A DNA stretch of 18,768 bases, taken from the IMG/VR virus record IMGVR_UViG_2923618136_000001; one strand, written 5' to 3'. Below the pieces are notes generated by a model. The model ran no database searches and was not told the origin of the DNA. It worked only from the letters and a program-made list of their open reading frames with translations. Shown one piece after another: positions 207 through 18,724 of the stretch. Origin of the DNA: a virus (lineage: Duplodnaviria; Heunggongvirae; Uroviricota; Caudoviricetes). Both the position numbers and the translations under genes were made by a program. The stretch's first letter is position 1, and the number at the start of each line of letters is the position of its first letter.

Positions 207-251
207 AAGAACGCCCCGTCATCCCGATGTCCGGGATGACGGGGCGTTCTT
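207..251. terminator. Bidirectional intrinsic terminator
   Basis: Perfect 20-bp stem AAGAACGCCCCGTCATCCCG (207-226) / CGGGATGACGGGGCGTTCTT (232-251) with a 5-nt loop, between convergent stops at 192 and 266. The minus-strand tail is T-rich. Confidence 0.9.
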
Positions 252-545: not shown

Positions 546-562
546 CCCGCCACTGTGGCGGG
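546..562 (-). other. GC-rich hairpin upstream of the holin RBS
   Basis: CCCGCCA-CAG-TGGCGGG on the minus strand: 7-bp stem, 3-nt loop. Confidence 0.45.
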
Positions 563-574
563 ACGAATCAGAAG

Positions 575-596
575 ACGCCAGCGGTATTGCTAGCAT
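575..596 (-). repeat. Conserved intergenic hairpin motif, copy A
   Basis: Minus strand AT-GCTAGC-AATACC-GCTGGC-GT; same pattern at 16037-16058 and 18697-18718. Confidence 0.7.
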
Positions 597-1408
597 TAGG
601 TGAGCGCGGCCTCCCAGCATGCGGCGTCCCAGATCAGGTCGTCGGCGCCCTTCGGGATCTTCTTGGCGGCCTTGAACGCCTCGATCTTGGCGATCAGGTC
701 CGTGTCCTTCGGGTCGTACTTCGTGCTGTGCAGGTTCGCGGGCTCGTAGCCGCGAGCGAACAGCAGGCCGCGCAGGGTCTTGACGTGCCGGTGCTCGTCA
801 CCGGGCTTGAGGACGGGCAAGTTCTTCACCAGGGCCTCCGTGGTCAGAATCTTGGTCGGGATAGGCGGAACAGGCTTCGGGGTCGGAGAGGGCGGGCGAG
901 GCGCGCCCTTCTTGATCCAGGCGTACAGAGGGCCGCCGGGACAATTCGTAGCGAATCCGTCCTTGTGTCCCTTGATCTCGTTGCCTGCGTTGCCCTCGGC
1001 GCGCAGGTACTCGATCGCGTCCCTGATGCCGTGCAGCAGGAGATCGTTCGGCTCGGTGAACCCCAGCGACCCGACGAGCGCGAGCACCGCGTAATGCCCC
1101 GTGTTCAGGCCCGCGCCGTTCGCGGCCGGCAGCGCGTGCAGTCCGCGGCCGACGAACACCTGTCGGTGCGGACAACAGATCAGGCTGTAGCCGATGTCGA
1201 TGTACGGCTGCTCCCGCGCGCCCGCCATGTGCATGGTTTGGACCTGCCGGACGAGCTTGCCGCACTCCTCGTGGTCACGCTCGATCGCCGGGGGCACGTG
1301 ACCGCCCGTGTAGTGGATCTTCACGCCCTCGGTGCCGGGAATTCTGGTGTAGGACGCCGTGGGGGTCTTCGCTCCCCACGTGCGGCGACTGACGAGCTTG
1401 ATGCTCAT
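596..1408 (-). CDS. Endolysin: N-acetylmuramoyl-L-alanine amidase (Amidase_2/PGRP-like) with C-terminal PG-binding-like domain, 270 aa
   Basis: SRRTWGA, IHYTGG, DIGYS, VFVGRG and HKDGFATNCPG amidase motifs; Pro-rich linker; LPVLKPGD...VKTLRGLL binding-domain motif. RBS AAGGAGG before ATG 1408. Confidence 0.9.
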   Translation of the reverse strand: MSIKLVSRRTWGAKTPTASYTRIPGTEGVKIHYTGGHVPPAIERDHEECGKLVRQVQTMHMAGAREQPYIDIGYSLICCPHRQVFVGRGLHALPAANGAGLNTGHYAVLALVGSLGFTEPNDLLLHGIRDAIEYLRAEGNAGNEIKGHKDGFATNCPGGPLYAWIKKGAPRPPSPTPKPVPPIPTKILTTEALVKNLPVLKPGDEHRHVKTLRGLLFARGYEPANLHSTKYDPKDTDLIAKIEAFKAAKKIPKGADDLIWDAACWEAALT

Positions 1409-1447
1409 GCTGGTATCCGCCCTCCTTGCTTGATGTCCGATGTCCAC

Positions 1448-1882
1448 TCAGCCCTGGCTGTCGGCACCACTGCCTCCGGTACCGTCTGCGGTCATGGCAG
1501 TGACGCCAGCGCTACCGCTGGCATCGGTGGAGTTGTTGATGATCGAGATGGTTCCGGCGAGCTGGTGCTGATCCAGGTGAGCGGCCAGGCCGTCCTCCAC
1601 CCGGCGCACGCCGCGCTCCAGCCGGTCCACCGCATCCCTGAGCGACGTCCCGTGGTTGGGACGCAACTGCTCCTCTATCGTCGTGATCCGCTGAGGGAAG
1701 CCCGGCCGCGCCGCGACCCCGGGCCGCGCCGCCTCGCCCTGCCAGTCGTCGAGGAAGTTCTTCAAGCTGGCGAACGTCCGCCACAGCCAGGTCACGCCCC
1801 GGCTGAGCATCGCCAGCAAGCCCAGACCGCCGGCCACCATCCCCGCGATCACGAACACGTCTAGTGCCGGGTTCCCGGTCAT
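1448..1882 (-). CDS. Membrane protein of the lysis cassette (DUF2746-like), 144 aa
   Basis: N-terminal TM segment, then the LRPNHGTSLRDAVDRLE motif typical of actinophage pre-lysin genes. ATGA overlap with the upstream gene. Confidence 0.7.
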   Translation of the reverse strand: MTGNPALDVFVIAGMVAGGLGLLAMLSRGVTWLWRTFASLKNFLDDWQGEAARPGVAARPGFPQRITTIEEQLRPNHGTSLRDAVDRLERGVRRVEDGLAAHLDQHQLAGTISIINNSTDASGSAGVTAMTADGTGGSGADSQG

Positions 1883-2547
1883 CGGGCCCCTTCCAAGGTC
1901 TGGCCGACGAACGTGGCTGCGGGCTTCTCCTCGAACGTCGGCCTCATGGGCTGCTGGAGACTGGTCCGGTACCAGGCCACGGCCAGGCTGCGGGCCTTGA
2001 TCCGCAGCGGATCCAAGCGGGTCAGCTCCTTGATCGGTTCCAGCGGGTCAGGGGGCGCGACCCGGTTGGAGCCGACGTACAGCAGCGCGTCCTGCCTCAT
2101 CTGCCGCTGCTCCGGCTGCATACAGACCCGGTGTGTCTTGACGGACTCGATCCGGGCCAGGTGCGCGGCCAGCCGTTCGGCGTCCGGCACGTCCGGGGTC
2201 CAGCAGGTCGGCAGACCATGCGTGTCCTGCAGCACCGCGACCGCCGCCGGGTTCGTCAGCGACAGGGAGTCCTGCGGGTCCGGGATCCACGGCTCGTGCA
2301 AGATCACGTCTAGCAGCGTGTCCAGGTCTTCGGGGTCGATGGCGTACTCGGCCGCCCGCCACTCCATCGTGGAGTGCGGGAAAATGTGCATGTATACGCC
2401 GCCGTCCGGCCGGACTCGCGACACTCCCCATATCGGCTCGGCGCCGTCGTGGCTGCTGCGTTGCTCGGGGTGTTCCCCTCCGGACTGGGTGAGGCTGGTC
2501 GGCGTGTAGGCCAGCTCGGCGTCCCAGACGGTCCAGATTTCCGCCAC
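1879..2547 (-). CDS. Hub/fibre-2 partner protein (paralog of 5532-6014), 222 aa
   Basis: RBS AAAGGAG before GTG 2547. EWRAAEY...LDVILH and DPLEPIKELTRLDP align with the 160-aa protein. Confidence 0.75.
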   Translation of the reverse strand: MAEIWTVWDAELAYTPTSLTQSGGEHPEQRSSHDGAEPIWGVSRVRPDGGVYMHIFPHSTMEWRAAEYAIDPEDLDTLLDVILHEPWIPDPQDSLSLTNPAAVAVLQDTHGLPTCWTPDVPDAERLAAHLARIESVKTHRVCMQPEQRQMRQDALLYVGSNRVAPPDPLEPIKELTRLDPLRIKARSLAVAWYRTSLQQPMRPTFEEKPAATFVGQTLEGAR

Positions 2548-2570
2548 GTAGGCGCTCCTTTCAAAAACGA

Positions 2571-5351
2571 TCAGTGGCGGTGAGACCACCAGTAGAAGCC
2601 CTTGCCGGACCGGACTCCTCCGCCGTCCGACCAGGCCAGGCTGAAATCCGTTGGTGTCGAGGCGTCCTCGCACCAGTTGAAGTTCGGGGTGAGCGCGCCG
2701 TCTCTGACGACCGCGACCGGCCCCATGTTGGAGGCCATCGACGGCCCGTAGGTGATCGTCACGCCGTAGTAGCCGGACGGCACCGTGCCTGACCCGGCGT
2801 GGACCGCCGAGTACGACGAGTGCGTTGTGGTGTCCCAGAACCGGCCTTGGAGGTAGTACCGGCCGGTGGCGTTGTTATGGATGTAGGTCTCGGTGGAGGA
2901 GATCCCATCGCTGTAGCCGAACTGGCCGTAGCCCTCGGCCACGTCCAGGCCGCCGCCGTTGTTGCCGGATCCGGAGTTGTCGCGGATCCGCAACCGGATC
3001 AGTCCGGCCGCGACCTGCAGCTCCGCGCGGGCCGAGTTGAACTGGTTGCTGCCACTCGTGATGAACGTGGTGGTTTCGCCGGGATACATGCCGTCGACCG
3101 CGTAGAACCGCGAGTAGTTGCTGTTCCCGGCCGGATAAAACCGCAGGTCCAAGGTGGCGGAGTCGAGCACGAACCGCTGCCCGGTCGCCGCCGAACGCAC
3201 CACTGAGCCCGTGATGGTCTTACCGGTGATCGCGTCAGCGGCGATCTTCGCGGCCGTAATGGCATTCGCGGAGATCTTGTCAGCTGTGATCGCGTTCGCT
3301 GCGATGCGCCCGGCCTGGATCGCCCCCACAGCGATCTTGTCGGCCTCGATGGCGTTGGCCTGAATGTGCCCGGCCTGGACCGCGAGCGCCTGAATCAGAC
3401 CACCCGTGATCGTCCCAGCGACGATCTTTGCTTCACCGGGGATGGTCCCGTCGATGATGTGCTCAGCGCCATCGATGACCTGACCGATCACGTCCGTGTC
3501 GACCAGGGCCACCGTGGCGACGACTCCGTGCGCCGACTCCTCGGACTCGTTGCCAGACCGGTCCACACTGGTCAGCCAGATTTCCCGATCCGCGCCGTAC
3601 GGCTGGCCAGGGATCACCACCGACCCGCGCGCGTCGAGAGAGCCGACGTCGACCGCCCCCGGCGCGAGCGGATCCTGCATCCACACCCGGACCCGCTCGA
3701 AGTCGGCGGGCATCGGCACGCCACCAGCACCCAGGCCGTCCCACTCCACGTGGATCACACCCAACCGGGTGGACAACGCCGGCGTGCTCGGCACGGGCGG
3801 CGCGTAGGGGTCGTCCGGGATCAGCACGGCGACAGCCGCCGAGAACTCGCCCTTCACGCCGTCGTTGACTCCGCGGACCTTGAAGCCGTACTCCCAGCCC
3901 ACGACCAGCGGCGACACCTCCGCCGTGGTGTCGGCCTGCGCGGTCTGCGCGACCAGGAACCACAGCTGGCCCTCCTCGTTGCGGCGGGCGTAGACCTCGT
4001 AGCCGTCGACGGTGACCGCGACGCCGTTGACGTCGCCGATGACCGGCGCCCACGTCACCACGGCGAGGCCCTGGGCGTAACCCGATGAGTCGAGGTAGGC
4101 GACCGGCTCGACGATCAGCCCGACCGGCGCGGCCGGAACCCGGCCGCTGGAGTCCGGAGCCGGGGTCGCGCCCGATCCTCCGGAGGCGACGCCGCCGGTG
4201 AGGATCCCCGCCGCCTGGCGGGCGAGCCGAATGTCTCTCTCCAAGAACCGGTCGTTGAGGGTGAGGTTGCCGCTGATCAGCCCAGACGCATCACACGACA
4301 GGGTGATCTGCCGGACCCGCAGCGACTGCATCACGCTCTGGTCGCCGGGCGCGCGGATGTAGTCGCCGGGCGCGTAATGCGCAAGCGGTAGTGATAGCGC
4401 CATATACGGCTTGATGGACCGGGTGAGCTGCACCCGCTCCCCGGCCGCCCGCTCCAACGCGTTCTGGCCAAGGAGCTGCGCAGTGCCCTCGTCTGTCACG
4501 CCGCCCTGGCTCTGGTAGGTCTCCCACCTCCCCCACGGCATCACCGCGGACGGGTTGGTCACCTCCACCTGCAGGCCGGCCTCACCCACGATCAGGATGG
4601 ACGAGGCGGCGTCCTCGAACGTCGCGTCGTCCGGCGCTGAGTCGATGTCACGTCCCAGCCGCAGCTCGACCGGCCCCGCCCCGGAGGCGAGGTCGCGGGC
4701 CAGCACGGTGCCCTCATTGAAGACCCTCAGCGTGCGGCCCTGCATGCACCAGTCGATGACGCCCTGGTCGGCCAGGTTGATCAACAGCGTCAGCAGGTCG
4801 GTGCCCGGGTCCAGGCCGAGCGTCAGAATCTTCGCCCACGGCCGCCCGTCCGAGTCCTCGTCCGGCGTGAAGTCGATGTCCAGGAACCGCAGAGTGCCGC
4901 GCGCCTGCCCCTCGGCAACCAGGGTTGCCAGAATCGCCCCGGCTGGGACGGAGTTGAACGGGCGCTTGCCGTCGACCATGGCCAGGTTGGGATGCAGCAC
5001 GAGCTTGCGGAGCTGCCAGCCGTAGCCGGGGCAGTCATACGACCGCGTCCCGGTCTGGTCCGTGCCGTCGCCGCTCCTCTTGATCCGTAAGAACCGGGCG
5101 TTCTCCGGCTCCAGCCACGGGCCGCCATCGATGGAGAATTCCATGGCGATCTCGCACGGCTGTGCGAGCCGGGAGGCGTCGGCGGCGACCGAGCTGTAGG
5201 CCAACCGCAGCGACGACACGTCATTGAGCGGCATCCCAGCGTCCCAACCCAGATGCTCGGGCAACACGCCGAGGCGCGGCCCGTTCGGGGAGTAGACGAC
5301 CAGCCGCAGCCCATACCGCTGCGGGGTGCCGGGAATGATGAGGTCAGGCAC
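2571..5351 (-). CDS. Tail hub / central fibre protein 2, 926 aa
   Basis: N-terminal hub-like region, two FN3-like domains (YGFKVRGVN; WLTSVDRSGNES), about 7-8 ten-residue AANAITADKI-type repeats, and a C-terminal lectin-like tip. Paralogous to 6396-9131. Confidence 0.8.
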   Translation of the reverse strand: MPDLIIPGTPQRYGLRLVVYSPNGPRLGVLPEHLGWDAGMPLNDVSSLRLAYSSVAADASRLAQPCEIAMEFSIDGGPWLEPENARFLRIKRSGDGTDQTGTRSYDCPGYGWQLRKLVLHPNLAMVDGKRPFNSVPAGAILATLVAEGQARGTLRFLDIDFTPDEDSDGRPWAKILTLGLDPGTDLLTLLINLADQGVIDWCMQGRTLRVFNEGTVLARDLASGAGPVELRLGRDIDSAPDDATFEDAASSILIVGEAGLQVEVTNPSAVMPWGRWETYQSQGGVTDEGTAQLLGQNALERAAGERVQLTRSIKPYMALSLPLAHYAPGDYIRAPGDQSVMQSLRVRQITLSCDASGLISGNLTLNDRFLERDIRLARQAAGILTGGVASGGSGATPAPDSSGRVPAAPVGLIVEPVAYLDSSGYAQGLAVVTWAPVIGDVNGVAVTVDGYEVYARRNEEGQLWFLVAQTAQADTTAEVSPLVVGWEYGFKVRGVNDGVKGEFSAAVAVLIPDDPYAPPVPSTPALSTRLGVIHVEWDGLGAGGVPMPADFERVRVWMQDPLAPGAVDVGSLDARGSVVIPGQPYGADREIWLTSVDRSGNESEESAHGVVATVALVDTDVIGQVIDGAEHIIDGTIPGEAKIVAGTITGGLIQALAVQAGHIQANAIEADKIAVGAIQAGRIAANAITADKISANAITAAKIAADAITGKTITGSVVRSAATGQRFVLDSATLDLRFYPAGNSNYSRFYAVDGMYPGETTTFITSGSNQFNSARAELQVAAGLIRLRIRDNSGSGNNGGGLDVAEGYGQFGYSDGISSTETYIHNNATGRYYLQGRFWDTTTHSSYSAVHAGSGTVPSGYYGVTITYGPSMASNMGPVAVVRDGALTPNFNWCEDASTPTDFSLAWSDGGGVRSGKGFYWWSHRH

Positions 5352-5535
5352 CGAACCCCCCGCTCACCGCCCCCGTGAACTGCTGCTCAAGCTGGTTCAC
5401 GCGCTCTTGGAGCTGCTCCACAGCGGTCGCCAGGACCGCGTTTTCATACGTCAGCGCATCAACCTGCGCGCTGTACCTCTGGCGCAGCGCTGCCACTGTC
5501 TTCTGTAGATCCACCGACACGTCGGTCATGCTCAC
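5344..5535 (-). CDS. Small coiled-coil protein, 63 aa
   Basis: Heptad-like LATAVEQLQERVNQLEQQ; overlaps both neighbours (coupled); AGGGAG lies before the alternative ATG 5529. Confidence 0.7.
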   Translation of the reverse strand: MSMTDVSVDLQKTVAALRQRYSAQVDALTYENAVLATAVEQLQERVNQLEQQFTGAVSGGFGA

Positions 5536-6014
5536 TCCCTGTTGCTGAGCCTGAATCGGTCGATCTCCATACGGATCGCCGCCGTCTTGATCGGGTCGAT
5601 CCGCGTCTGATCCCGGATGACCTGCAGCGGATCAGCCGCCTTGGCCGCGCGGGCGGCCCCCGCCGCCGCGGCGGTGATGGTTCCGTAACGCTCCTTGCAG
5701 ATGGCGAGCTGCTCAGTCACCTGCGCGCGAGCGGCCTCGACGTCGAGCAGGCCGGGCGCCGGCATGTCCAGCTCCCCGGCCGCGTGAGCGGGCGCGAGCA
5801 ACGCCGCATGCAGGATCACGTCCAGGGCTTCATCGACGGTGGCCAGGCCGTACTCCGCTGCCCGAACCTCGATCGCTTCCTTCGGCACGTAGGAAGCGAA
5901 CCCCGAGCTCGGGTCGCCGTCGACCGGCTCGTAGGTGATCAGCCACGCGTCCTCGCCGGGACTGCTCACCTCGCGGACCTGAGTGATACGCCACTGCTGG
6001 ACCGGCATCGTCAC
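5532..6014 (-). CDS. Hub/fibre-1 partner protein (paralog of 1879-2547), about 160 aa
   Basis: EVRAAEY...LDVILH and DPLQVIRDQTRIDP motifs. GTGA overlap with the 122-aa gene; start could be 6017, 6014 or 6008. Confidence 0.75.
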   Translation of the reverse strand: MTMPVQQWRITQVREVSSPGEDAWLITYEPVDGDPSSGFASYVPKEAIEVRAAEYGLATVDEALDVILHAALLAPAHAAGELDMPAPGLLDVEAARAQVTEQLAICKERYGTITAAAAGAARAAKAADPLQVIRDQTRIDPIKTAAIRMEIDRFRLSNRE

Positions 6015-6379
6015 CACTCGGCCGACGGGATCGCCACGCCGCTGAAAGTGAACGTGACCGTCTCCTCGTAGTCCCTGTAGCGCCGGACCACGACCGTGTT
6101 GCTACCGTCAGCCAACGCCTGCGCGGCGTCCTGCGCGGCAGTGGAAGGGTCGATGAAACCCTCGGGCGGATGCTCGAAGTGCTCCACCGCCCACCGGTAT
6201 GTCGTCGGGGAGACCGGGACACGGAACGCGACGTACCACTGCTCACCGGGGCGGTACACGGTGGATCCGTCAGGCAGGAAGATTCCCCACATCATTCCTG
6301 GGCTCTTGAGCACCTCTACGGCCGCCTCATCGAGCGCGGCAACATCAGGGGTAACGGAATCCCCGTTGATCCAAAACAT
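6011..6379 (-). CDS. Hypothetical protein downstream of hub/fibre 1, 122 aa
   Basis: Strong RBS GAAGGAGG before ATG 6379; fills the gap in a tightly packed operon. Confidence 0.75.
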   Translation of the reverse strand: MFWINGDSVTPDVAALDEAAVEVLKSPGMMWGIFLPDGSTVYRPGEQWYVAFRVPVSPTTYRWAVEHFEHPPEGFIDPSTAAQDAAQALADGSNTVVVRRYRDYEETVTFTFSGVAIPSAEW

Positions 6380-6395
6380 GGTCCTCCTTCATCGA

Positions 6396-9131: not shown

Positions 9132-9141
9132 CCCCTGATCA

Positions 9142-9199
9142 TGTATACCGGTAGACAGATGGGGTGCCGCACTCTAATGTGTCTACCAGTAGACACATT
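9142..9199 (+). promoter_or_regulatory. Sigma70/HrdB-type promoter overlapped by two palindromic operators
   Basis: -35 TAGACA 9152-9157, 17-bp spacer, -10 TAATGT 9175-9180. Operators TGTaTAC-CG-GTAGACA (9142-9157) and perfect AATGTGTCTAC-CA-GTAGACACATT (9176-9199). RBS GGAGG 9201-9205. Confidence 0.8.
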
Positions 9200-9209
9200 G
9201 GGAGGCGTA

Positions 9210-9527
9210 ATGGACATGGAACTCGTCACGATCCACGACGTGGACGGCCTGTTCGACAACCAGATCGATGGCGCGCTGCCCTGGAACATCGACCCGGTCT
9301 TCGCTTTCGAGACCGAGGTCGACGCCCTGCAGGTCCTCCAGCATCTCGCCGAGCAACTCGACACGACCCGCCAGCAGCTCCACCACGTGATGCGCTACAT
9401 GGAAGCCGCCGTGAAGGCCGCAGGCGCAACCGTCGAGGACGGGTCACCGATCAAGCCTCAGGCGATCATCAACCACACGGGCCTCTCGCGCCGTACCGTC
9501 TACAAGTTCCTCGGCACGCGCCAGTAG
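9210..9527 (+). CDS. Accessory HTH protein (helical N-part, C-terminal resolvase-type HTH), 105 aa
   Basis: PQAIINHTGLSRRTVYKFL HTH; RBS GGAGG; it is the 3' end of the 7974-9527 ORF-track frame. Confidence 0.8.
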   Translation: MDMELVTIHDVDGLFDNQIDGALPWNIDPVFAFETEVDALQVLQHLAEQLDTTRQQLHHVMRYMEAAVKAAGATVEDGSPIKPQAIINHTGLSRRTVYKFLGTRQ

Positions 9528-9536
9528 TCTGCGGCC

Positions 9537-9845: not shown

Positions 9846-10640
9846 GACGGCCCGCGAGTGCGGGTCGCCCAACGCCATCGCGGGGGTCAGGTGTAGCCAC
9901 CGGAACGCCGACCCCGGGCCGGTGGCGTTGATGTCGCCGGTCACGTCCGTCCCTTCGTCGAGGTCCCACGTGTCGGTCGTGACGATCGCGGCCCTGAGCT
10001 GCCCGCAGTCGATCAGCAGGTGCTGCCCGGCGAGCACAGTCTCCGCGTAGGACACCGTGCCCCCGGTGGCCACGTCGACGACCGAGGGATGCACGGCCGG
10101 GCCGGTCACCCGCACCAGCGCATCCGTGACCGGCCCCGTGGACCCGGCAAGCGGGGTCACGATCTGCGCGGCCCCCGGCAGGGTGCCGGTCCACGTCGAA
10201 TCGACCTCGTCCCGCCAGTACACGCCCGGGACCTTCACCACGGCGGTCAACCTGGCCAGCGCCGCCCCGACATTGACCTCCGGCTCCGACACGGCCTCGA
10301 CGGTCACGCCCGCGACGCGGATGATCGACCCGGCCACCCACTTGCAGGTGATCAGCCGGTGCCGCACGCCGAGCAGCGCGCCCAGCGCTTCGAGGTTGGC
10401 CTCCATCTGCTCGACCCCGCCGTCCGCCCCGGACGGGGTCCGCGAGTAGACGGTGAGCGCGAGCCCGAACGACGTCGCCTCATGGTCGAGGCTCATGATC
10501 GGCAGTTCACCGGCCCGGCCCGCCACGGCCACGTTCGCCGCCCGCACCCCCGGCAACGGCCGGCGCTTGGTGCCCTTCTTCAACTTCCAGCACCCGCTCG
10601 GATGATCCAGCGGGACACCGTCGAGGACGTACGTCGCCAC
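9771..10640 (-). CDS. Distal tail protein (Dit-like), 289 aa
   Basis: Directly after the tape measure; size and beta-rich pattern fit Dit; typical C-terminus KIRGRRSYL. Confidence 0.75.
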   Translation of the reverse strand: MATYVLDGVPLDHPSGCWKLKKGTKRRPLPGVRAANVAVAGRAGELPIMSLDHEATSFGLALTVYSRTPSGADGGVEQMEANLEALGALLGVRHRLITCKWVAGSIIRVAGVTVEAVSEPEVNVGAALARLTAVVKVPGVYWRDEVDSTWTGTLPGAAQIVTPLAGSTGPVTDALVRVTGPAVHPSVVDVATGGTVSYAETVLAGQHLLIDCGQLRAAIVTTDTWDLDEGTDVTGDINATGPGSAFRWLHLTPAMALGDPHSRAVLVSATASSTSGASALKIRGRRSYL

Positions 10641-12857
10641 TCACACCACCCCCAGTGCACCGGCCATTTGCAGGCCACGATTGATCGTCTGCGATGACGG
10701 TTCGGCCTGCGGGTTGATCGTGGTCAAGTTGAACACCACGCCCCCGCCTCTCCCCGGCCCGGCGCCGCCGGCCACTCCCCCGCCCGGCCCGACCGGCACG
10801 GCCAGCTCCGGGGAGAACGCTGTGCTTAGCTGCCCAGCGATGTTCCGGGCCGTGCGCAGCACCTGCCCGGCCGACCCTTGCATGCCCTGCGCCATGCCGA
10901 GCATCGTGAACTGGCCGATCTGAGCGAACACCCGGCTGGGCGAGGAGATACCGAGGGCCTGGCGCACCCAGTCCGGCATGATCTGCGAGAAGAACCCGAG
11001 GATGGAGTTCCGGAACCAGTCCCACATGGACACGATGCCGTTCCACAGGCCGCTGATCACGGCCACGCCGATGTTGCCCATCACCGAGGCGATGTCACCG
11101 ACTGCGGACACGATCTGTCCCGGCAGGTTCATGAAGAAGCCGACCAGCGTCCCGCCGATCCACTGGCCGATCCCTCGCACCAGGTCAGGGATGATGCTGT
11201 GACCGATCAGCACGTCATACAGCCACCCGAACGCGGCGGCGACCGTCTGCACCATCGCGTTCACGACCAAGACGATCATCTGCACTGACGGGCCCAGAAC
11301 GTACGACAGGCCCTGCGCGAGCAGCGTCACCAGGGTGATGACCTGCGGCAGCACTGTGACCGCGAGCTGCACCAGCGGCGGCAGCAGCGGCATGACCGCA
11401 TAGAGGATCTGCGTGAACCCTGATGCGAGCTGGACCAGCATCGGAGCGAGCGAGAGAACAAGCTGCACAGTCGGAGGCAGAAGCGACACCGCGAGCTGCA
11501 GCAGCATCGGCAGGATCGGCGTCACGGCGGGCAACAGCGACGTGAACGCCTGAGCCACCTGAACCAGCGCGGGCGTAAGCATGATCACCGCACGCATGAC
11601 CTCCGTGCCGACCAGGACCGCGGCCTGCGTCAGCAACGGCAGAATCGGCGCGATGGCCTGCACGAGCACACCGAGGACCTGAACCAGCGCCCCGCCCACG
11701 ACGGCCGCAAGCTGCCCGACGAGCGGCAACAGCGGCGACAGGGCAGGTAGCAGCGCCGTGGCGATCTGCGCAACCAGATTCGCCAGCGGGCCAAGCAGCG
11801 GGATCACGGCCAAGAGGAACTGCCCGAACGCGGTCGTGAGCTGCCAGACGACCGGCTGGAGCTGCACCAGCACCGGCACCAGAGCGGCGGTGATCGCTGA
11901 GACGACCTGCACCAGTACCGGCATCAACGCTGTCGCGAAAATCGCGACGAGCTGCACCAGCGGCGGCAGCAGCGGGGCCATGGCCGCGACGAGCTGGCCG
12001 AGGCTCACGACGAGCACGGCGACGTGCGGCGCGACCTGCGTAAGCGCTTGGATGAGCGCACCACCGAGGGCCTGCACGATCATCGCCAGGGCACCCATGA
12101 CCGGCCCCATGAGCTGCGCGCCCACCTGGACGAGCGTGGCGATCAGCGGGGCGAGGGCCTGGAGGATCGAGCCCACGCCGACGATGAACTGAGCGACCGC
12201 ACCCGAGTTCGCCGCGACCGCCTGCGCGATCACGCCGAAGAACCCGGCGAGCTGCGCACCGAAGATGCCCATCACGCCGGCGAGCTGAGACAGGACCGGC
12301 ACGGCAGCGGCAACGATGTGCTGCAGCGCGGGCAGCGCCGACTGGAGGAACTGCACCAGGCCCGTCGTGAGTTGTCCCAGCAGCGGCGCGATCTGGCCGA
12401 ACATCTGAGTCAGCGCGGGGGCGATCATCTGCGCGAAGATCGAATGCAGGTTCGCGGCGACCTGCACCAGCGGGGCCTCGAACACACTGGCCGCTCGCTT
12501 CAGCTCCATCGTGACGCTGTCGGCCATCGCGGAAAACGCCAGCTTGACGCCTTCCGCTTGCGCGGCCGCGGCGATACCGATCCCGCCGAGCACGCCGACG
12601 ACCCCGAGGAAGCTGGCTCCGACGATGACAGCGGAACTGCTTGCGGCTACGCCGAGCGCGCCGAGCGCTGTGGCCGCCGACGCCGCGGCGATCCCGACTC
12701 CTGCGCTCATCGAGGCGGCTTGGACACCGATCGACCCGAAGATGCCGCCGAACTGGCCCGCGAACCGCTGCAGGTCGTTCAGGGCCCGGCGGAGCCCGGG
12801 GGTGAGGTAGTCCCGCAGGCTGATCGTGGCGACCAGGTCGCCGACGTTGAGCGCCAC
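10641..12857 (-). CDS. Tape measure protein 2, 738 aa
   Basis: N-terminus MALNVGDLVATISLRD; long amphipathic LLPPLVQL repeats; LGISSPSRVF...G motif; RBS AGGAGGTGA. Confidence 0.85.
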   Translation of the reverse strand: MALNVGDLVATISLRDYLTPGLRRALNDLQRFAGQFGGIFGSIGVQAASMSAGVGIAAASAATALGALGVAASSSAVIVGASFLGVVGVLGGIGIAAAAQAEGVKLAFSAMADSVTMELKRAASVFEAPLVQVAANLHSIFAQMIAPALTQMFGQIAPLLGQLTTGLVQFLQSALPALQHIVAAAVPVLSQLAGVMGIFGAQLAGFFGVIAQAVAANSGAVAQFIVGVGSILQALAPLIATLVQVGAQLMGPVMGALAMIVQALGGALIQALTQVAPHVAVLVVSLGQLVAAMAPLLPPLVQLVAIFATALMPVLVQVVSAITAALVPVLVQLQPVVWQLTTAFGQFLLAVIPLLGPLANLVAQIATALLPALSPLLPLVGQLAAVVGGALVQVLGVLVQAIAPILPLLTQAAVLVGTEVMRAVIMLTPALVQVAQAFTSLLPAVTPILPMLLQLAVSLLPPTVQLVLSLAPMLVQLASGFTQILYAVMPLLPPLVQLAVTVLPQVITLVTLLAQGLSYVLGPSVQMIVLVVNAMVQTVAAAFGWLYDVLIGHSIIPDLVRGIGQWIGGTLVGFFMNLPGQIVSAVGDIASVMGNIGVAVISGLWNGIVSMWDWFRNSILGFFSQIMPDWVRQALGISSPSRVFAQIGQFTMLGMAQGMQGSAGQVLRTARNIAGQLSTAFSPELAVPVGPGGGVAGGAGPGRGGGVVFNLTTINPQAEPSSQTINRGLQMAGALGVV

Positions 12858-12859
12858 GT

Positions 12860-12905
12860 CTCACCTCCTGAAAGGTCCGCATGGGCTGGGATTTCAGGAG
12901 GTGAG
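12860..12905 (-). promoter_or_regulatory. Hairpin sequestering the TMP2 ribosome-binding site
   Basis: Perfect 14-bp inverted repeat CTCACCTCCTGAAA (12860-12873) / TTTCAGGAGGTGAG (12892-12905). On the mRNA the 3' arm is the TMP2 SD. Confidence 0.8.
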
Positions 12906-12919
12906 GCGCGAGCCGGGTG

Positions 12920-14836
12920 TCAGGAGACGAGGCCGGCCGCCGCGGCGTACTGCAAGCCCCTATTCACGGTCTTGGAGGTGGGCTCGGCCTGCGGGTAGTT
13001 GTTCGTGACGTGCACCGTCACCTGGGATGCTCGGGCTGCGGCGTTCTGCCCGCTGAACCCTCCGCCGCCCTCGATGGCCACCACGGACCCGCCGTTGCCC
13101 GTGCTGCCCTCGATGGTGTTCTTCGGCTTCGGCAGCGGAACATCGAACTTGGTCGCGGTCCCCACGATGCGGCCCAGCCCGTCGCGGGCCACCGACTGCA
13201 CCTTGTCGACCATGATCTTGGCGGCGCTCATCGCGATTTTCTCGTTGTCCTTGATGCCCTTGGCCAGGCCGAGCACGGAGAACATGCCGAACTCAGCGAA
13301 GACCGTGGACGGCGAATTGATGCCGAGCAGGCCCTTGATCCAGCCGAGGAACCCGTTGATCAGGTTGCCGACCGAGGAGGTGAATTTGTTCCAGGTGTTC
13401 TGGAATCCCTGGATGATGCCGTTGACCATGTCCGAGCCCAGGGTCTGCAGCTTCTTGAACGCCTCGGTGACGGTCTTGCCGAAGACGCCGACCGCGTTCT
13501 TGATCAAGTCGAAAGCGCCTCGGAAGTCCCCTTGGAAAAGCTTGATGACCGCCTGCACGGCGCTCAGGACCAGGGGAATCACGGCGGTCGCGAGCTGCAT
13601 CAGGGGTGGCAGGAACGGCGTGACGGCAGCGACCAGCTTCACGAAGACCCCAGCGAGCAACGTCAGAACCGGGGTCAGCGCCTTGATGATCGTCACGATC
13701 GGCGGTAGAAGCCCGACCAGGAGCTGCGACAGCGGCGGCAAGATCGGCAGCAAAGCCGTGATGACCTGCCCGAACGCGGACGCGACCTGAGCCAGCACCG
13801 GCTGCAGCGCCACCAGAACGGGCTGCAGCGCCGCCGTCAAGGACTGCGCGATCTGGACCAGCACCGGCATGAGCGACGTCGCCAGGGTGGCCGCGAGCTG
13901 CAGGAACGGCGGCAGGAGCGGGATCACGGCGGTGAGGATCGCCCCGAAAGCCGTCACGATCTGAGCGATGACCGGCCCGAGCTGGATCAGAACTGGCGCA
14001 AGCGATGTTGATAGCGCGTTACCAACCCCGGCCAGCGCAGCGAAAAGCGGCCCGGCGACCTGCCCGGCCACCTGGACCAGGGCGGCGAGCACCGGACCTA
14101 TCGACTGCAGAACCCCGCCGATCCCGGTTACCAGGGTCGCCAGAAGACCGCTGTTCTGGCTCAACGCCTGCGTGATCGGCTCCATGAACCCAGCGATTTG
14201 CCCACCGAAGGTACCGAGGCTCCCGGCGAGCTGGCTGAGCATCGGAGCGACCGCCGCCACGAGTCCGGAGACTGCCGGCAGCATCGGCTGCAGGAAGTCG
14301 CCCAGCCCGGAGGTGAAGTCACCGATCAGCGGAGCCAGATCGGTGAACATGCCCTGCAAGGCAGGCGCGATCTCGCTGGAGAACATCGTCTTCAGCGACC
14401 CGGCCGCCTGGATCAGCGGCGCCTGGAACACCGTCGCGGCGTCCGCCATGTCCGCCTGAACCGAGGTCTTGAGATCACCGAAAGCGGCCTTCACCGCTGG
14501 TGCGGCCATCGCCGCGTTGATGCCGAGCTTCGCGATCCCGAGCGCGGCGCCAGCAAAAGCGAAAGCGACAGCGCCGCCGACCGCGACTCCGGCCGCTCCC
14601 ACCCCGGCCAGCAGCGCGCCGCTCTTGGCCCCGGCCGAGGCGATGGCCTTGCCCGTTGACGCCGCCCCCGACACGACGGCCGACGACATGCGTCCGGCCG
14701 CCATCCCGGCGGCGATCAGGGCGGCGTGGATCCCCGTCGCGTTGACCTTGATTCCAGCGGTGGCCCTGCTGAACGGCCCTGTCATCTGGTCTCGGAATGA
14801 CAAGGTGGCGTACAGGTCACCAATGTTGATCGCCAT
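12920..14836 (-). CDS. Tape measure protein 1, 638 aa
   Basis: N-terminus MAINIGDLYATLSFRD; amphipathic repeats; LGINSPSTVF...G motif; RBS AGGAGG; follows the tail assembly chaperone. Confidence 0.85.
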   Translation of the reverse strand: MAINIGDLYATLSFRDQMTGPFSRATAGIKVNATGIHAALIAAGMAAGRMSSAVVSGAASTGKAIASAGAKSGALLAGVGAAGVAVGGAVAFAFAGAALGIAKLGINAAMAAPAVKAAFGDLKTSVQADMADAATVFQAPLIQAAGSLKTMFSSEIAPALQGMFTDLAPLIGDFTSGLGDFLQPMLPAVSGLVAAVAPMLSQLAGSLGTFGGQIAGFMEPITQALSQNSGLLATLVTGIGGVLQSIGPVLAALVQVAGQVAGPLFAALAGVGNALSTSLAPVLIQLGPVIAQIVTAFGAILTAVIPLLPPFLQLAATLATSLMPVLVQIAQSLTAALQPVLVALQPVLAQVASAFGQVITALLPILPPLSQLLVGLLPPIVTIIKALTPVLTLLAGVFVKLVAAVTPFLPPLMQLATAVIPLVLSAVQAVIKLFQGDFRGAFDLIKNAVGVFGKTVTEAFKKLQTLGSDMVNGIIQGFQNTWNKFTSSVGNLINGFLGWIKGLLGINSPSTVFAEFGMFSVLGLAKGIKDNEKIAMSAAKIMVDKVQSVARDGLGRIVGTATKFDVPLPKPKNTIEGSTGNGGSVVAIEGGGGFSGQNAAARASQVTVHVTNNYPQAEPTSKTVNRGLQYAAAAGLVS

Positions 14837-14862
14837 GCCCGCCTCCTGGTCGTCAGTGCTGG

Positions 14863-15189
14863 TCAGTCGGAGGAGGGGATGCCGCGTCTGCGGCTGGTTG
14901 CCTTACTGGGAGGCGGGGCGAGCTGACGAGACAGCCGGGTGTCTTCCGCCAGCAGCCCGAGGATCCGAACCCGTAGCCACCGCCAGGACCGACCCGTCAG
15001 CACGCCGGGCGCGTCGAGGTCGATCCCGTAGTGGCTGTGCAGGTCCGCCTCGATCAGGTCCCAGTGGGTCAGGACGCCTTCCCACGTGAGGCCTTTTGGC
15101 GCGGGTTCGTACCACTCGTAGAGCCCCGTGACTTCGTCGTACTCGCCGCCGCCGATGAGGTCGCCGGGTCCGGGGCCTGTGCTTCCGGG
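14863..15189 (-). CDS. Tail assembly chaperone T-segment, probably expressed by -1 frameshift from the upstream ORF
   Basis: The -1 frame encodes HWDLIEADLH..YGID...RSWRWLRVRILGLL, typical of actinophage chaperone T segments. It has no RBS-supported start of its own. Candidate slip site CCCGGAA at 15189-15183. Confidence 0.65.
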   Translation of the reverse strand, partial: PGSTGPGPGDLIGGGEYDEVTGLYEWYEPAPKGLTWEGVLTHWDLIEADLHSHYGIDLDAPGVLTGRSWRWLRVRILGLLAEDTRLSRQLAPPPSKATSRRRGIPSSD

Positions 15190-15533
15190 CTGCCACCGGA
15201 CTCCCAATACCGCGTCGCGGTGTCGAGGTCGGCAGCGATCCACAGAAACGCCGTCACACCGGCGAGCTTGATCACCGGCCAGGAGACCTTGTCTGCGAGC
15301 AGCTCCCCATGGACGGGGCCGAGGCACCGCTGGTAGAGGTCGAGCTCCTCGCCGTCGTCCAGGTCGGCGAGGTCAGCCTGCTTGCCGTTCGCGGCGGCGA
15401 CACCGGCCTGCATGAGCCTCTGGCAGAGCAGGCCGGTCTCCGCGGACGGCGCCGGGATGGTGTACTCCTTGCCGCCGATCGGCAGGGTGAGCGTGGTGTC
15501 GAGAAACGCGTCGAGGGCCTTGAGCTTCGCCAT
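15069..15533 (-). CDS. Tail assembly chaperone (G-like), 154 aa
   Basis: Lies between tail tube and TMP; LDAFLD..LTLPIGGKEYTIPAP motif; low-complexity S/T/R tail overlapping the T segment. Confidence 0.8.
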   Translation of the reverse strand: MAKLKALDAFLDTTLTLPIGGKEYTIPAPSAETGLLCQRLMQAGVAAANGKQADLADLDDGEELDLYQRCLGPVHGELLADKVSWPVIKLAGVTAFLWIAADLDTATRYWESGGSPEAQAPDPATSSAAASTTKSRGSTSGTNPRQKASRGKAS

Positions 15534-15536
15534 GGG

Positions 15537-16007
15537 CTACGCCGCCGCCGGGTTCGTGATCTTGACGGGCTTGCCCTGGCCGAGGAGCTCACACTCGAAC
15601 GGCTCCAGGTCGGTGGTCTCGCCACCCGCGCCCTTGTAGTCCACGGCGGCGCGACCCTCGTAGGCGTCCGGCGAACCGTCACGGCGGTACCAACGGCACT
15701 GGATGTCCGCGCCGGGGCCGACCTCGTGGCCGGCTTCCCGCAGGAACTCCTGACCGGTGTCCGGCACGAAGGTCACCGCGTCGGCGTCCCGCTTGCGGTT
15801 GCCGTTGAGCGTCAGCGTCCACCCGCGCTGGGTGACGACCTGGGAGGCCCAGCCGTCGCCGTCGAAATCGCTGTCGTCCTCGGTCTCGGTGTTGATCTCC
15901 TCGCTGAACTCGGTGAGACCCTTGACGGGGGTCCAGACCGGCGTGGCCGCCGTGCCGGTGTTGACCTCGACAATCCAGTCCTTGGCGAGGAGGCTGCGCA
16001 GCGTCAT
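15537..16007 (-). CDS. Major tail (tube) protein, 156 aa
   Basis: RBS AGAAGGAG before ATG 16007. EVNTGT..TPVW..VKGLTEF, DFDGDGWASQVVTQRGW and WYRRDG..DAYEG motifs of actinophage tube proteins. Confidence 0.85.
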   Translation of the reverse strand: MTLRSLLAKDWIVEVNTGTAATPVWTPVKGLTEFSEEINTETEDDSDFDGDGWASQVVTQRGWTLTLNGNRKRDADAVTFVPDTGQEFLREAGHEVGPGADIQCRWYRRDGSPDAYEGRAAVDYKGAGGETTDLEPFECELLGQGKPVKITNPAAA

Positions 16008-16031
16008 GTCTTCTCCTTCTGAGCGCATGCG

Positions 16032-16059
16032 AAAAGCCGCCAGCAGATTCGCTAGCGGC
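16032..16059 (-). repeat. Conserved intergenic hairpin motif, copy B (terminator-like, followed by TTTT)
   Basis: Minus strand GCCGCTAGC-GAATCT-GCTGGCGGC-TTTT: 9-bp stem with one G.U pair. Confidence 0.7.
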
Positions 16060-16075
16060 AGTGGTTCAGAAACAG

Positions 16076-16537
16076 TTAGGGCCGGTGCGGGGACGGCCGG
16101 ACGCACCGCAGTTCGTAGCTGTCGGCCCTCTCCACCCGGCCCGACCCGTCCCGTGTGTGCGGGGTGATGATTCGCCGCTCGGCGAGCAGCACGAACACCC
16201 CTGTCGACAGCCGGTACTCGGACAGGCCGTGCACGGCGTTGAACACGGCGTCCGCGAGGTCGTCGGCCACACGAGGATCCGAGCCGCCGCCTCGCACACG
16301 GAACTGCACCAGCACTGAGCTGTCGGTTTGCTCGATGTCGTCACCGGCTTGGCCGAGGCCGTACGCCGCGATCGCGATGGCCAGGTCCGGTGCGGTCGGC
16401 AACCCGCCGAGCGTGATGGCGGTCTGCTCGGGCGTGTAGATCCCCTCGGGGTTCCAGTCGCCGGCGCCCTCGTCCTCCAGGAGCTGCCCCAGGCCCGAGA
16501 GCAGCAGCCGCGTCCATCCCTGCGGTGGTGGCGTCAC
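16076..16537 (-). CDS. Tail terminator (minor-capsid-3-like), 153 aa
   Basis: Position before the tail tube; VQFRVRG..DPRVADDLADAVFNAVHGL and RADSYEL motifs. Confidence 0.75.
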   Translation of the reverse strand: MTPPPQGWTRLLLSGLGQLLEDEGAGDWNPEGIYTPEQTAITLGGLPTAPDLAIAIAAYGLGQAGDDIEQTDSSVLVQFRVRGGGSDPRVADDLADAVFNAVHGLSEYRLSTGVFVLLAERRIITPHTRDGSGRVERADSYELRCVRPSPHRP

Positions 16538-16893
16538 CGGAACAGCTCCTTGAGTTGCTGCGCCAGGAGCGCCTGCACGGCGGAGGCTTCCTCTTCCAGG
16601 GCCGTCTCCAGGTACTTCGCCTGGCGGCCGGGCGCGTGCTTCCAGTCGAGGTTTTCGTGCTGAGCCACCGCGTATGGCTGGTCGTAGCTGATCGAGGCCC
16701 GCATCTCCGAGCGGTCCACGGACGTGGCGCCCGAGTTCTGCAGGTGACCCTCTTGGATCGGCACCCGCGTGTTCGCCACCCCCAGGACGTGCTCGGCGGC
16801 GTCCCTAAGCGCCCGCTCGGCCGCGGTCTTGGTCTTCTGGTCGAACACGGCCGGGCTGACGTGAAGGTCCAGCTTGATATCGATGTCTTTCAC
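16534..16893 (-). CDS. Neck protein, HK97 gp10-like, 119 aa
   Basis: RVPIQEGHLQNSG, YDQPYAVAQHE and PGRQAKYLETAL motifs. Confidence 0.8.
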   Translation of the reverse strand: MKDIDIKLDLHVSPAVFDQKTKTAAERALRDAAEHVLGVANTRVPIQEGHLQNSGATSVDRSEMRASISYDQPYAVAQHENLDWKHAPGRQAKYLETALEEEASAVQALLAQQLKELFR

Positions 16894-17204
16894 TTCAGCG
16901 CCACCTCCACGTGATCAGGTGTGGGCAGGCCGCCGCCGTCGCGGATCAGCGATGTGATGGCCGTGGTCGATCGGCCGTTGACCGTGACTCGGCTACCGGG
17001 CGGGCACACGACGCCGGGCTTGAAATACAGCGTCGTGTCCGAGACGATCTCCAGGCCGGTGGCGTCCCTGACAAGCTGGCGCTTGTCGTCGGCGAGGCAC
17101 GGCTCCGTCACCGGGGGGCCGAAGACCGGCCCGTACGCGCCTTCGCCCATCAGCGGCTCGATCACCGCCTCGTGCCGGAACATGAAATCCGGGATGGCGG
17201 TCAC
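16890..17204 (-). CDS. Head-closure / stopper protein, 104 aa
   Basis: EGAYGPVFG...CLADDKRQLVRDATG...PGSRVT pattern; coupled by 4-nt overlaps. Confidence 0.75.
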   Translation of the reverse strand: MTAIPDFMFRHEAVIEPLMGEGAYGPVFGPPVTEPCLADDKRQLVRDATGLEIVSDTTLYFKPGVVCPPGSRVTVNGRSTTAITSLIRDGGGLPTPDHVEVALK

Positions 17205-17581
17205 CAGGTCATCACCGCGATCAGGAACCCGGCCCGTAGAAGGATCGACACCGCGTCCTGCGCGTAGCGAGGCGCGGAGCCGTCCTTGCTCTCCACCCTG
17301 GAAAGGCGAACGGACCCCATCGACACGTCCTTGAAAGCCGACGCTGTGCCGTGCTCATCTCCCACGGCGAGCGTCCACGCGGCCTGAGCGCATGTCGCGC
17401 GGGCCATCGCGTCCCGCTCCTCCGCGTCCAGGGCAAGCCCCTGCGCGTCGGTTTCGTAGATGGCGTTGGCCAGCATCTCGTCAATACGTTCCGACGCCCG
17501 CGCGAGCCGCCGCTCGATGTCGGCCGGACCGGACTTGCCGGTGTAGTCGAGATAGTCCTCTGCCGTGGCGTAGGTCGGCAT
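17201..17581 (-). CDS. Head-to-tail adaptor, 126 aa
   Basis: YATAEDY...RLARASERID...RATCAQ...SMGSVRLS pattern of gp15-like adaptors. Confidence 0.8.
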   Translation of the reverse strand: MPTYATAEDYLDYTGKSGPADIERRLARASERIDEMLANAIYETDAQGLALDAEERDAMARATCAQAAWTLAVGDEHGTASAFKDVSMGSVRLSRVESKDGSAPRYAQDAVSILLRAGFLIAVMTW

Positions 17582-17584
17582 GGG

Positions 17585-17935
17585 CTACCCCGCAGGCAAT
17601 TCAAGGACCTCGACCGACAGGCCGGCCGGGTCCGAGTAGTCCAGGTAGACCTTGCCGTTGGCCTGGTTGTAGATCGCGGGCAGCGGCGGGATCAGCAGGT
17701 CCCCGGTGGTCGCCTCCACCGTGTAGGGGCGGTCCGGGATGGGCTGCCCCTCGACCTCGCCGGGGATCTGCACCGTGACCGTCCGCGCAGCGCCGTTGCT
17801 GTTCTTCACGCGAACCATGCGGCGGCCGTTGTTCACGAACATGTGGCCGTCCACGGTGGCAAGCGTGGGCAGCGCGCCCGCCAGGTCGTGGCCAGCGCGG
17901 GTCATCGGCGTGACCGGCAGATCAGCTCTAGCCAT
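17585..17935 (-). CDS. Conserved actinophage virion-region protein, 116 aa (possible decoration protein)
   Basis: Beta-rich; NNGR..VRVKN..TVTV and IYNQANG.V.LDYS motifs; located in the head operon. Confidence 0.65.
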   Translation of the reverse strand: MARADLPVTPMTRAGHDLAGALPTLATVDGHMFVNNGRRMVRVKNSNGAARTVTVQIPGEVEGQPIPDRPYTVEATTGDLLIPPLPAIYNQANGKVYLDYSDPAGLSVEVLELPAG

Positions 17936-18248
17936 CGTTGTCCTCCTCCTGGCCGAACTCCTTCACCAGCGACGCCTTGCTGAGCGCCTTGGCGTCCTTC
18001 TCAGCCATGCCGCAGTGGACCGCGTAGGCGACCCACTCGGCTTTGGGCTCGGTGTCGAGAGGCCGCGTGGATCGCGACGGCACCATGGGGATGGTGACGG
18101 TGCTCGGCGCGGGCACCGGTTCCGGGTCGGGGTCCGGGGCTTCCTCGGGGGCGTCGATCAGCAGCCAGTTCGACAGGTGATCGAGTCGGACTGACCGCTT
18201 CGGGGTCTCCCAGCAGTCACCCGTGTTGCTGTTGCGGTAGACGTACAT
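17928..18248 (-). CDS. Hypothetical head-region protein, about 106 aa
   Basis: YRNSNTGD N-terminus, Pro-rich linker, KAEWVAYAV...SKASLVKEFG small helical C-terminal module. ATG 18248 follows AGGTGG; the ORF track start is GTG 18257. Confidence 0.7.
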   Translation of the reverse strand: MYVYRNSNTGDCWETPKRSVRLDHLSNWLLIDAPEEAPDPDPEPVPAPSTVTIPMVPSRSTRPLDTEPKAEWVAYAVHCGMAEKDAKALSKASLVKEFGQEEDNDG

Positions 18249-18257
18249 GCGAGCCAC

Positions 18258-18635
18258 CTACGGATTCACTCGGAGATCGACCTGCACGATCACCTCTGCC
18301 GGGCTGCCGGCGGGGTCCGCGACGGTGACGGACAGGGTGTCGCCTGCTGCGAACGCCGCGTTCTGCAGCGCTGTCCAGCCCGTCCACCCATCGGTCGCGG
18401 TGGCGAGGTTCTCGGCGAGCAGGTCGCCCCCGTTGCGCTGGGCGTTGACGGTGCCGCCCGTCCCGCCAGCGCGGTAGGCGCGCACGGCGATGGCCGTGCA
18501 GCCGCTCGGAATCCTGGTCACCATGTAGGTGCCGGACTTGCCCTCGGGAACGCGGTATTCCTTGGTGAACGTGCGAACGGCGGACAGGTCGATCTCGCCA
18601 GCGTGTCCATCCACTGTGTAGACCTGGTAACCCAT
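18258..18635 (-). CDS. Small beta-sandwich protein after the capsid gene, 125 aa (possible decoration protein)
   Basis: RBS GGAGGGAG; CTAIAVRAYRAGGTGGTVNA...QNAAFAAGDTL...VQVD resembles a domain recalled from actinophage virion proteins. Confidence 0.65.
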   Translation of the reverse strand: MGYQVYTVDGHAGEIDLSAVRTFTKEYRVPEGKSGTYMVTRIPSGCTAIAVRAYRAGGTGGTVNAQRNGGDLLAENLATATDGWTGWTALQNAAFAAGDTLSVTVADPAGSPAEVIVQVDLRVNP

Positions 18636-18667
18636 CAGTGCTCCCTCCGTGAGGCTTGGAGATGGGA

Positions 18668-18692
18668 GGCCCGCCCCGGGGGTGGGCGGGCC
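18668..18692 (-). other. GC-rich hairpin after the capsid gene
   Basis: GGCCCGCCC-ACCCCCG-GGGCGGGCC: 9-bp stem, no real U tract. Confidence 0.5.
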
Positions 18693-18696
18693 GGAG

Positions 18697-18718
18697 ACGC
18701 TATCTGAAGCGCTAGCGT
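18697..18718 (-). repeat. Conserved intergenic hairpin motif, copy C
   Basis: Minus strand AC-GCTAGC-GCTTCA-GATAGC-GT, 6 nt after the capsid stop. Confidence 0.6.
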
Positions 18719-18724
18719 GATGGA

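Follow-up and report, generated by a model that had tools for sequence, protein, structure and literature searches.

What is the function of a short inverted repeat that recurs in the gaps between late genes of a phage? The question is raised by an 18,768-nucleotide (nt) stretch of a Caudoviricetes genome (IMG/VR record IMGVR_UViG_2923618136_000001), hereafter the window, which corresponds to C1:2747352-2766119 (contig C1) of a 10.6-Mb, 69% G+C Streptosporangium genome. A sequence-only reading had singled out three 22-nt copies of a hairpin motif on the minus strand (sites A, B and C) and proposed a phage-specific, boxB-like RNA element, with a DNA box for a phage late activator as the alternative. 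A sequence check found all three copies at their reported minus-strand coordinates, each after a stop codon and ahead of the next start, in a gene context supported by PHROGs. They also contain, as had been noted, the only GCTAGC hexamers in the window. Three hexamers are close to the 2.5 expected; the signal resides in the paired arrangement. The explanation we prefer, to which we give about even credence, is that sites A, B and C belong to a genome-wide set of operators or roadblocks at which a phage regulator acts on DNA, and that some of these sites have been built out into hairpins or terminators.

The paired arrangement extends far beyond the three sites. The core GCNAGC-N6-GCTNGC occurs in 23 exact copies, or about 35–45 with one mismatch, all of them confined to a single prophage of ~100 kb (C1:2,728,772-2,829,505). 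Nearly all genes of this prophage lie on the minus strand, and its capsid protein shares about 70% identity with the capsid proteins of Streptomyces phages Hiyaa, Galactica, Keanu and Spocter. When the whole genome was searched with GCTAGC-N6-GMTRGC, all exact matches fell within about 100 kb; allowing one mismatch per half gave 46 sites in C1:2.70-2.86 Mb, and elsewhere in the genome just two sites had a total of one mismatch or none. This confinement agrees with the proposal that the element is phage-specific. The description of a late-operon trio has to be abandoned, as the sites are prophage-wide and accompany early as well as late genes. GCTAGC by itself is very rare in the host genome (234 copies in 10.3 Mb, 27 of those in the prophage), and the 224-kb contig C3 has 11 copies and no dyads.

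A megablast search of the window against a phage collection gave no match, and when 200 genomes of the family were scanned for the pattern, no other genome showed clustered sites. The capsid protein led instead to about 40 related prophages, mostly from Nonomuraea, Streptosporangium and Planomonospora. Four were assembled in full and, together with the present prophage, make up a five-prophage set. Each of the four carries 20–21 exact cores, and the set as a whole has 104 in 541 kb, compared with 2 in 540 kb of host DNA. The scan of the prophage and its relatives that the sequence-only reading had suggested thus uncovered both further copies and their conservation. Sites persist at orthologous places despite divergence of the flanking sequence, and the boxes themselves may differ: the orthologs of site A in relatives G201 and G204 have other box variants, and those of site C in 11 relatives are GCAAGC/GCTTGC, GCCAGC/GCTGGC or GCTAGC/GCTAGC.

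At greater distances the boxes change altogether. In relatives with capsid identity of 86% or less the GCTAGC type is wholly absent, and the 6-N6-6 layout is kept with other boxes. These are GAATGC/GCATTC in a Planomonospora phage (14 sites), GTAAGT/ACTTAC in one distant lineage (10 sites) and GATAGC/GCTATC in another (7 sites). A dyad occupies the position syntenic to site B in every relative examined, and each distant lineage has its own dyad there, between the connector and major tail genes. Such concerted, genome-wide box replacement points to a sequence-specific protein co-evolving with its sites. Many of the relatives reside on stand-alone contigs of 88–106 kb, one of them labelled as a plasmid; in these strains the phage may be extrachromosomal or spontaneously induced.

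Streptomyces phage Hiyaa (MK279841) has no GCTAGC at all. It does contain about 35 copies of a different motif, gGGtA-CTTGCG-N5-CGCAAG-N4-TGaTTTAa (for example at 74374, 75214 and 76942), which is directional and promoter-like, lies in the non-structural arm and is flipped in orientation ahead of leftward genes. Unlike the prophage dyad, this motif includes a fixed −10-like TGATTTAA. A literature search on the Hiyaa motifs found no usable paper.

The architecture of the sites is strict. On the sense strand the family consensus reads CCnnTGAY-GCWAGC-RvWAby-GCTNGC-RtcA, and the motif alignment holds no information outside positions −7 to +22. Each site consists of two boxes, sometimes three, spaced 12 bp apart centre to centre, where a box is the near-palindromic hexamer GC(A/T)AGC; the flanks follow TGAY...RTCA. 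In the five prophages all spacings of 0–12 nt other than 6 are at background. The loop had been described as always 6 nt of variable sequence, and this holds for the family: apart from an A/T preference at the centre, the spacer is not conserved, and the commonest spacer occurs in 5 of the 104 copies. At the 6-nt spacing both inverted and direct box combinations are enriched. Direct repeats of the form GCAAGC-N6-GCAAGC account for 14 sites (about 12% of copies) and are conserved at orthologous positions, while triple-box arrays form 30-bp palindromes whose spacers remain complementary between prophages.

The sites are also placed non-randomly. Only 7 of the 104 copies lie deep inside an open reading frame (ORF), compared with 59% of random positions in a spanning-ORF test, a stricter test that supersedes rough gene calls assigning 65 of the 104 to intergenic DNA. 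The remaining 93% are at gene boundaries, in keeping with the earlier view of sites at module boundaries. Typically, a site begins 1–25 nt from the upstream stop and ends 3–35 nt ahead of the following start. Reverse-strand cargo blocks are nearly free of copies. As a separate observation, C/A-rich words (CCAACCAA, CAACCCA) are 10- to 20-fold enriched in the intergenic DNA (5′ untranslated regions) of the five prophages, where they often stand between a dyad and a start codon.

Which protein might bind these sites? The best candidate is a 170-aa protein encoded outside the window, for which modeling predicts a tandem ribbon-helix-helix fold. In each of the five prophages its gene is the only early gene that is transcribed divergently; it is flanked by the densest site cluster (3–4 sites in under 1 kb) and carries one dyad within its own 5′ coding part. 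The protein comprises two 46%-identical repeats, each β-α-α. As neither Pfam nor PHROGs gave anything significant, and Pfam ribbon-helix-helix matches in its relatives stayed below threshold, the fold was taken from an AlphaFold model and a structure search. The model shows strand-helix-helix twice, with a mean predicted local distance difference test (pLDDT) score of 71. Foldseek E-values were weak (0.1), and VIA-align gave Z of about 9. The top match was chain 9f0x_E of the F plasmid relaxosome (Z 9.0), which we take to be TraY, followed by single-chain Arc (1u9p, Z 8.7) and then by DndE (7x4e, 5wtu) and AvtR (4hv0); single-domain PutA, NikR and omega ranked lower.

In every relative that encodes this protein, dyads lie next to its gene and within it. 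Homologs with 61–64% identity, encoded on unrelated contigs, are again ringed by GCAAGC/GCTAGC dyads. All homologs belong to Nonomuraea and Streptosporangium prophages except for a 32%-identical one in the Planomonospora phage, which has its own GAATGC-type dyads just upstream of the gene. A homolog search in Hiyaa returned nothing significant. Omega-type repressors bind box arrays of either orientation at a fixed period. By analogy, boxes in direct, inverted and triple arrays at one period would match omega-type binding, and a palindromic 6-bp box would fit the two-fold ribbon-helix-helix unit.

Two other prophage proteins deserve mention here. One is an early protein (C1:2818572-2819045, minus strand) whose C-terminus resembles the RNA polymerase α C-terminal domain or a helix-hairpin-helix (PF03118, 23.4 bits, slightly below the cut-off). 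Conserved throughout the five prophages, it is preceded in each by a dyad, which in four is a 30-bp triple-box palindrome and in G205 is a single two-box site. The other, a GntR/HutC-type regulator (GntR and UTRA domains; C1:2736892-2737695, plus strand) in a nearly dyad-free reverse-strand cargo block, is an alternative candidate for a prophage regulator.

Taken together, these data suggest the following scheme. The prophage would present about 35–45 sequence-specific docking sites in the short gaps between genes of its lytic operons (early, structural and lysis). The dyads probably work as double-stranded DNA, serving a phage-encoded regulator as operators or roadblocks, with the 170-aa protein as the best candidate for that regulator. 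In this way a single protein could control or silence transcription across the whole 100-kb genome, as stoperators or omega heptad arrays do. Because the sites are dyads, their transcripts are able to fold, and at a minority of loci, such as site B and C1:2789624, the dyad has been extended into a real hairpin or terminator.

How does this scheme compare with the original idea of a covarying RNA hairpin? The alternative states that the transcribed dyad folds into a hairpin read by a phage RNA-binding protein or nuclease, and thereby controls translation, mRNA processing or stability, or termination and antitermination. The covariation seen among A, B and C, however, is not a property of the family, as judged from the 104-site alignment. 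At the centre of the stem (box position 3 with its partner), 60 of the 103 distinct copies (58%) have no pair, and each of the four flank pairs is missing in a third to a half of the copies; in total, pairing is seen in 66.3% of cells, compared with 63.0% in column shuffles. A covariance model, likewise suggested by the sequence-only reading, gained next to nothing from its ten base pairs (0.770 versus 0.767 bits per position for a sequence-only model). In the orthologs of A, of B and of the post-terminase site, the variable stem position changes and the pair is not kept.

Nor is either strand preferred. Mean minimum free energies are −11.29 kcal/mol for sense and −11.26 kcal/mol for antisense RNA (p=0.77), and G·U wobbles favouring sense RNA number 96, against 114 A·C pairs, which are wobbles only on the antisense strand. 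The argument that wobble-type changes indicate a minus-strand RNA therefore holds for A and B only and fails on the full set. Moreover, the 14 direct-repeat sites are unable to form a hairpin, the longest stems are perfect Watson-Crick palindromes free of G·U pairs, Rfam has no match in the window, and no candidate RNA-binding protein came to light. With an often unpaired centre, no strand advantage, a variable loop and about 40 copies, a boxB-like hairpin is not supported. Also retained from the original proposal is the notion that the site is recognised by a protein, as it probably is.

Several observations nevertheless weigh against a set of sites acting simply on DNA, and most of them speak for RNA. 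At least 5 Watson-Crick pairs extend through the variable flanks at 7 sites, compared with 0.7 expected. The copy at C1:2789624 has a terminator-like 12-bp stem followed by TTTT, and in its ortholog two pairs have changed in a compensatory manner. The two spacers of triple-box arrays complement each other, with U·G wobbles in the sense strand. The use of boxes is skewed with respect to the direction of transcription, with GCAAGC on the left 62 times and GCTTGC on the right 20 times (orthologs were counted, so the copies are not independent), and such a bias is not predicted by a simple symmetric dimer. The location of many sites 3–35 nt ahead of start codons would also suit a translational RNA operator, and some spacers carry a Shine-Dalgarno sequence, as in GCAAGC-agaaag-GCAAGC-ATG. 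On the sense strand the spacer is rich in A and purines, and its positions 8–11 and 9–10 avoid complementarity, as a loop would. Sites A and C, in addition, each have a GC-rich hairpin immediately downstream. True hairpins do occur in a minority of copies, B among them, and some have T-runs. Two further points concern the proposed regulator itself: the dyad-bearing relatives G206 and G208 have no significant ribbon-helix-helix homolog (best E=0.08), and a TTCGCGAA word enriched in the prophage forms palindromes of what seems to be a separate switch region. An RNA-level element is less likely than the explanation we prefer, yet it is the strongest competitor and has to be taken seriously.

The DNA-box alternative of the sequence-only reading fares better in one half than in the other. 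A DNA box is the better fit to the data; a promoter for a late activator is not, as no −35/−10 elements occur at a fixed distance. We found no σ70-like promoter in the window. The TTGAC of the left flank was tried as a −35 element and rejected, since the flank is a palindromic arm (TGAY/RTCA) with no −10 after it. The flanking TGA was likewise considered as a stop codon and discarded, as it is a real stop in only 11 of the 104 sites.

A non-regulatory DNA signal, such as a recombination or "module boundary" sequence, a small mobile palindrome or the target of a cytosine-modifying enzyme, would account for the location at gene boundaries, and Cluster O repeats seem to bring about insertions and deletions through recombination (PMC4351075). 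We regard this explanation as improbable: the sites stay in orthologous places while their flanks diverge, they show no target-site duplications or transposase-like features, and nothing ties the specificity of a modifying enzyme to the dyad word. Least probable of all is that the copies are plain intrinsic terminators or attenuators whose stems became alike through copying between sites (gene conversion) rather than through protein recognition: B and C1:2789624 do look like terminators and a simple terminator scan lists A (but not B), yet only these few copies combine a stable GC-rich stem with a T-run, most have weak mismatched stems and no T-run, there is no family-wide T enrichment downstream, termination needs neither a strict 6-nt spacing nor invariant box letters, and whole lineages have changed their box sequence in concert.

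A bolder and more tentative version may also be considered, which we think less likely than not. The tandem ribbon-helix-helix protein might be a genome-wide, direction-sensitive "punctuation" regulator that binds about 40 paired-box sites at gene boundaries and has co-diversified with GCTAGC, GATAGC, GAATGC and GTAAGT boxes across Streptosporangiaceae prophages. It would then represent the stoperator principle invented a second time, with an unrelated fold, and might operate on both DNA and the nascent hairpin.

Within the window, the individual sites illustrate the range of the family (see the table). Site A begins on the final base of the endolysin stop (TAA 598-596; identity by PHROGs) and scores 30.0 bits on the minus strand and 26.6 bits on the plus strand. 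Site B (31.4 bits) is located 19 nt past the stop of the head-tail connector gene and 29 nt ahead of the major tail protein ATG (16007), both assigned by PHROGs. Of the three it forms the best hairpin, which is terminator-like and has a stem extended by three pairs. Site C lies 6 nt past the stop of the major capsid protein (TGA 18727-18725; PHROGs) and 62 nt ahead of a 125-aa gene. It is the weakest of the three (15.8–17.6 bits), and the G·A mismatch reported for it is present. RNA fold energies are −18.6 kcal/mol for B (z −5.1), −11.1 kcal/mol for A and −7.2 kcal/mol for C (z −1.9).

The count of three proved too low. The window contains a fourth strong copy, inside the 3′ part of a 144-aa holin-like gene and 57 nt ahead of its stop, as well as three weaker copies, two of which (4381..4398 and 13998..14015) may be chance matches. 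Of the two GC-rich hairpins next to sites A and C, the one past C is kept in relatives, and more distant relatives have a classic T-run terminator at the same place. A very strong terminator-like hairpin, with a 20-bp stem followed by a T-rich tail, is located past the lysis genes (window 207-251, minus strand).

Table. Dyad copies and associated features (window coordinates unless prefixed with C1)
Feature	Coordinates	Strand	Sequence and remarks
Site A	573..598, core 577-594	−	TAAT-GCTAGC-aatacc-GCTGGC-GTCT
Site B	16035..16060, core 16039-16056	−	ctgcc-GCTAGC-gaatct-GCTGGC-ggc then CTTTTC
Site C	18695..18720, core 18699-18716	−	tcac-GCTAGC-gcttca-GATAGC-gtct
Fourth strong copy	1501..1526, core 1505-1522	−	cgat-GCCAGC-ggtagc-GCTGGC-gtca; 31.5 bits, top match in the window
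Weak one-mismatch copy	4381..4398	−	GCTATC-actacc-GCTTGC; inside 926-aa tail gene; 12.9-13.3 bits, E about 0.01-0.02
Weak one-mismatch copy	12627..12644	−	GCAAGC-agttcc-GCTGTC; inside 738-aa gene; 16.3 bits on plus strand, E 0.001
Weak one-mismatch copy	13998..14015	−	GCTATC-aacatc-GCTTGC; inside tape-measure-like gene; 11.7-11.8 bits, E about 0.04
GC-rich second hairpin	546..562	−	cccgccacagtggcggg; between site A and next ribosome-binding site
GC-rich second hairpin	18668..18692	−	ggcccgccc...gggcgggcc; directly past site C
Candidate binder, 170-aa single-chain tandem ribbon-helix-helix protein (predicted)	C1:2815274-2815785	+	outside the window

Few handles exist on the silencing and timing of large temperate actinophages, and sites repeated across the genome are one of them. 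Sets of this kind are known from stoperators and Cluster O repeats; the present design and family appear to be undescribed. To our knowledge, a mechanistic understanding exists only for the stoperator system of Cluster A. The set reported here is both large and clean, and its conservation extends to many prophages of Nonomuraea, Streptosporangium and Planomonospora; its lineage-specific box switches amount to a natural experiment on how a protein and its sites evolve together. If the proposed scheme is true, it would offer orthogonal repressor/operator pairs for the engineering of actinomycetes and a marker for recognising this prophage family.

Among known systems, λ N boxB/nut resembles the dyads in being a short hairpin in phage transcripts at operon boundaries, and some dyad copies, too, are upstream of terminator-like hairpins. 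However, boxB has a conserved loop, a paired stem and two copies per genome, whereas the dyads have a variable loop, an often mismatched stem and about 40 copies. The phiC31 repressor binds conserved inverted repeats (CIRs), multiple phage-specific copies of which are scattered over an actinophage genome. CIRs differ from the dyads in sequence and are fewer in number; a literature search on them found no paper. The omega repressor of pSM19035, like Arc, MetJ and CopG a ribbon-helix-helix protein (PDB 2bnw, 1irq), likewise uses short boxes at a fixed period. Omega-type boxes work in direct or inverted orientation and in groups of two or more, and one small protein serves several operons, including that of its own gene. 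The differences are that omega reads abutting 7-bp heptads at a few promoters, while the prophage has 6-bp boxes 12 bp apart at about 40 sites, and that the candidate single-chain tandem ribbon-helix-helix protein resembles F TraY or AvtR.

Cluster O mycobacteriophages carry a 17-bp dyad, TGTTCGG-N3-CCGAACA, for which a dimeric regulator has been suggested as the binder (PMC4351075). Like the prophage dyads, this repeat has dyad symmetry with an A/T-rich centre, is present in more than 30 copies per genome, often at gene boundaries or 5′ ends, and is absent from the host genome. The sequence and the layout (7-N3-7 versus 6-N6-6) differ, so that the resemblance is one of kind only. Furthermore, Cluster O repeats do not vary in sequence, and about a third of them lie inside genes, whereas the prophage boxes are degenerate at one position and keep to gene boundaries; direct and triple arrays are found among the prophage dyads, unlike among the Cluster O repeats.

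A further comparison is with the stoperators of Cluster A mycobacteriophages, the sites of the L5 gp71-type immunity repressor (PMC9283540, PMC6550527). Stoperators and dyads alike are present in dozens of phage-specific copies genome-wide, mainly in short intergenic gaps of lytic operons; in both, the sequence differs between related phage lineages. Stoperators have an orientation bias relative to transcription, to which the 62-to-20 box use of the dyads, counted with orthologs included, may correspond. The recognition units are distinct: a stoperator is an asymmetric 13-bp site for a monomeric two-domain helix-turn-helix repressor, whereas a dyad is an 18–26-bp two-box site for a candidate tandem ribbon-helix-helix protein. 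Finally, and unlike in the stoperator system, the switch of the prophage seems to be a distinct one, served by operators of another kind.

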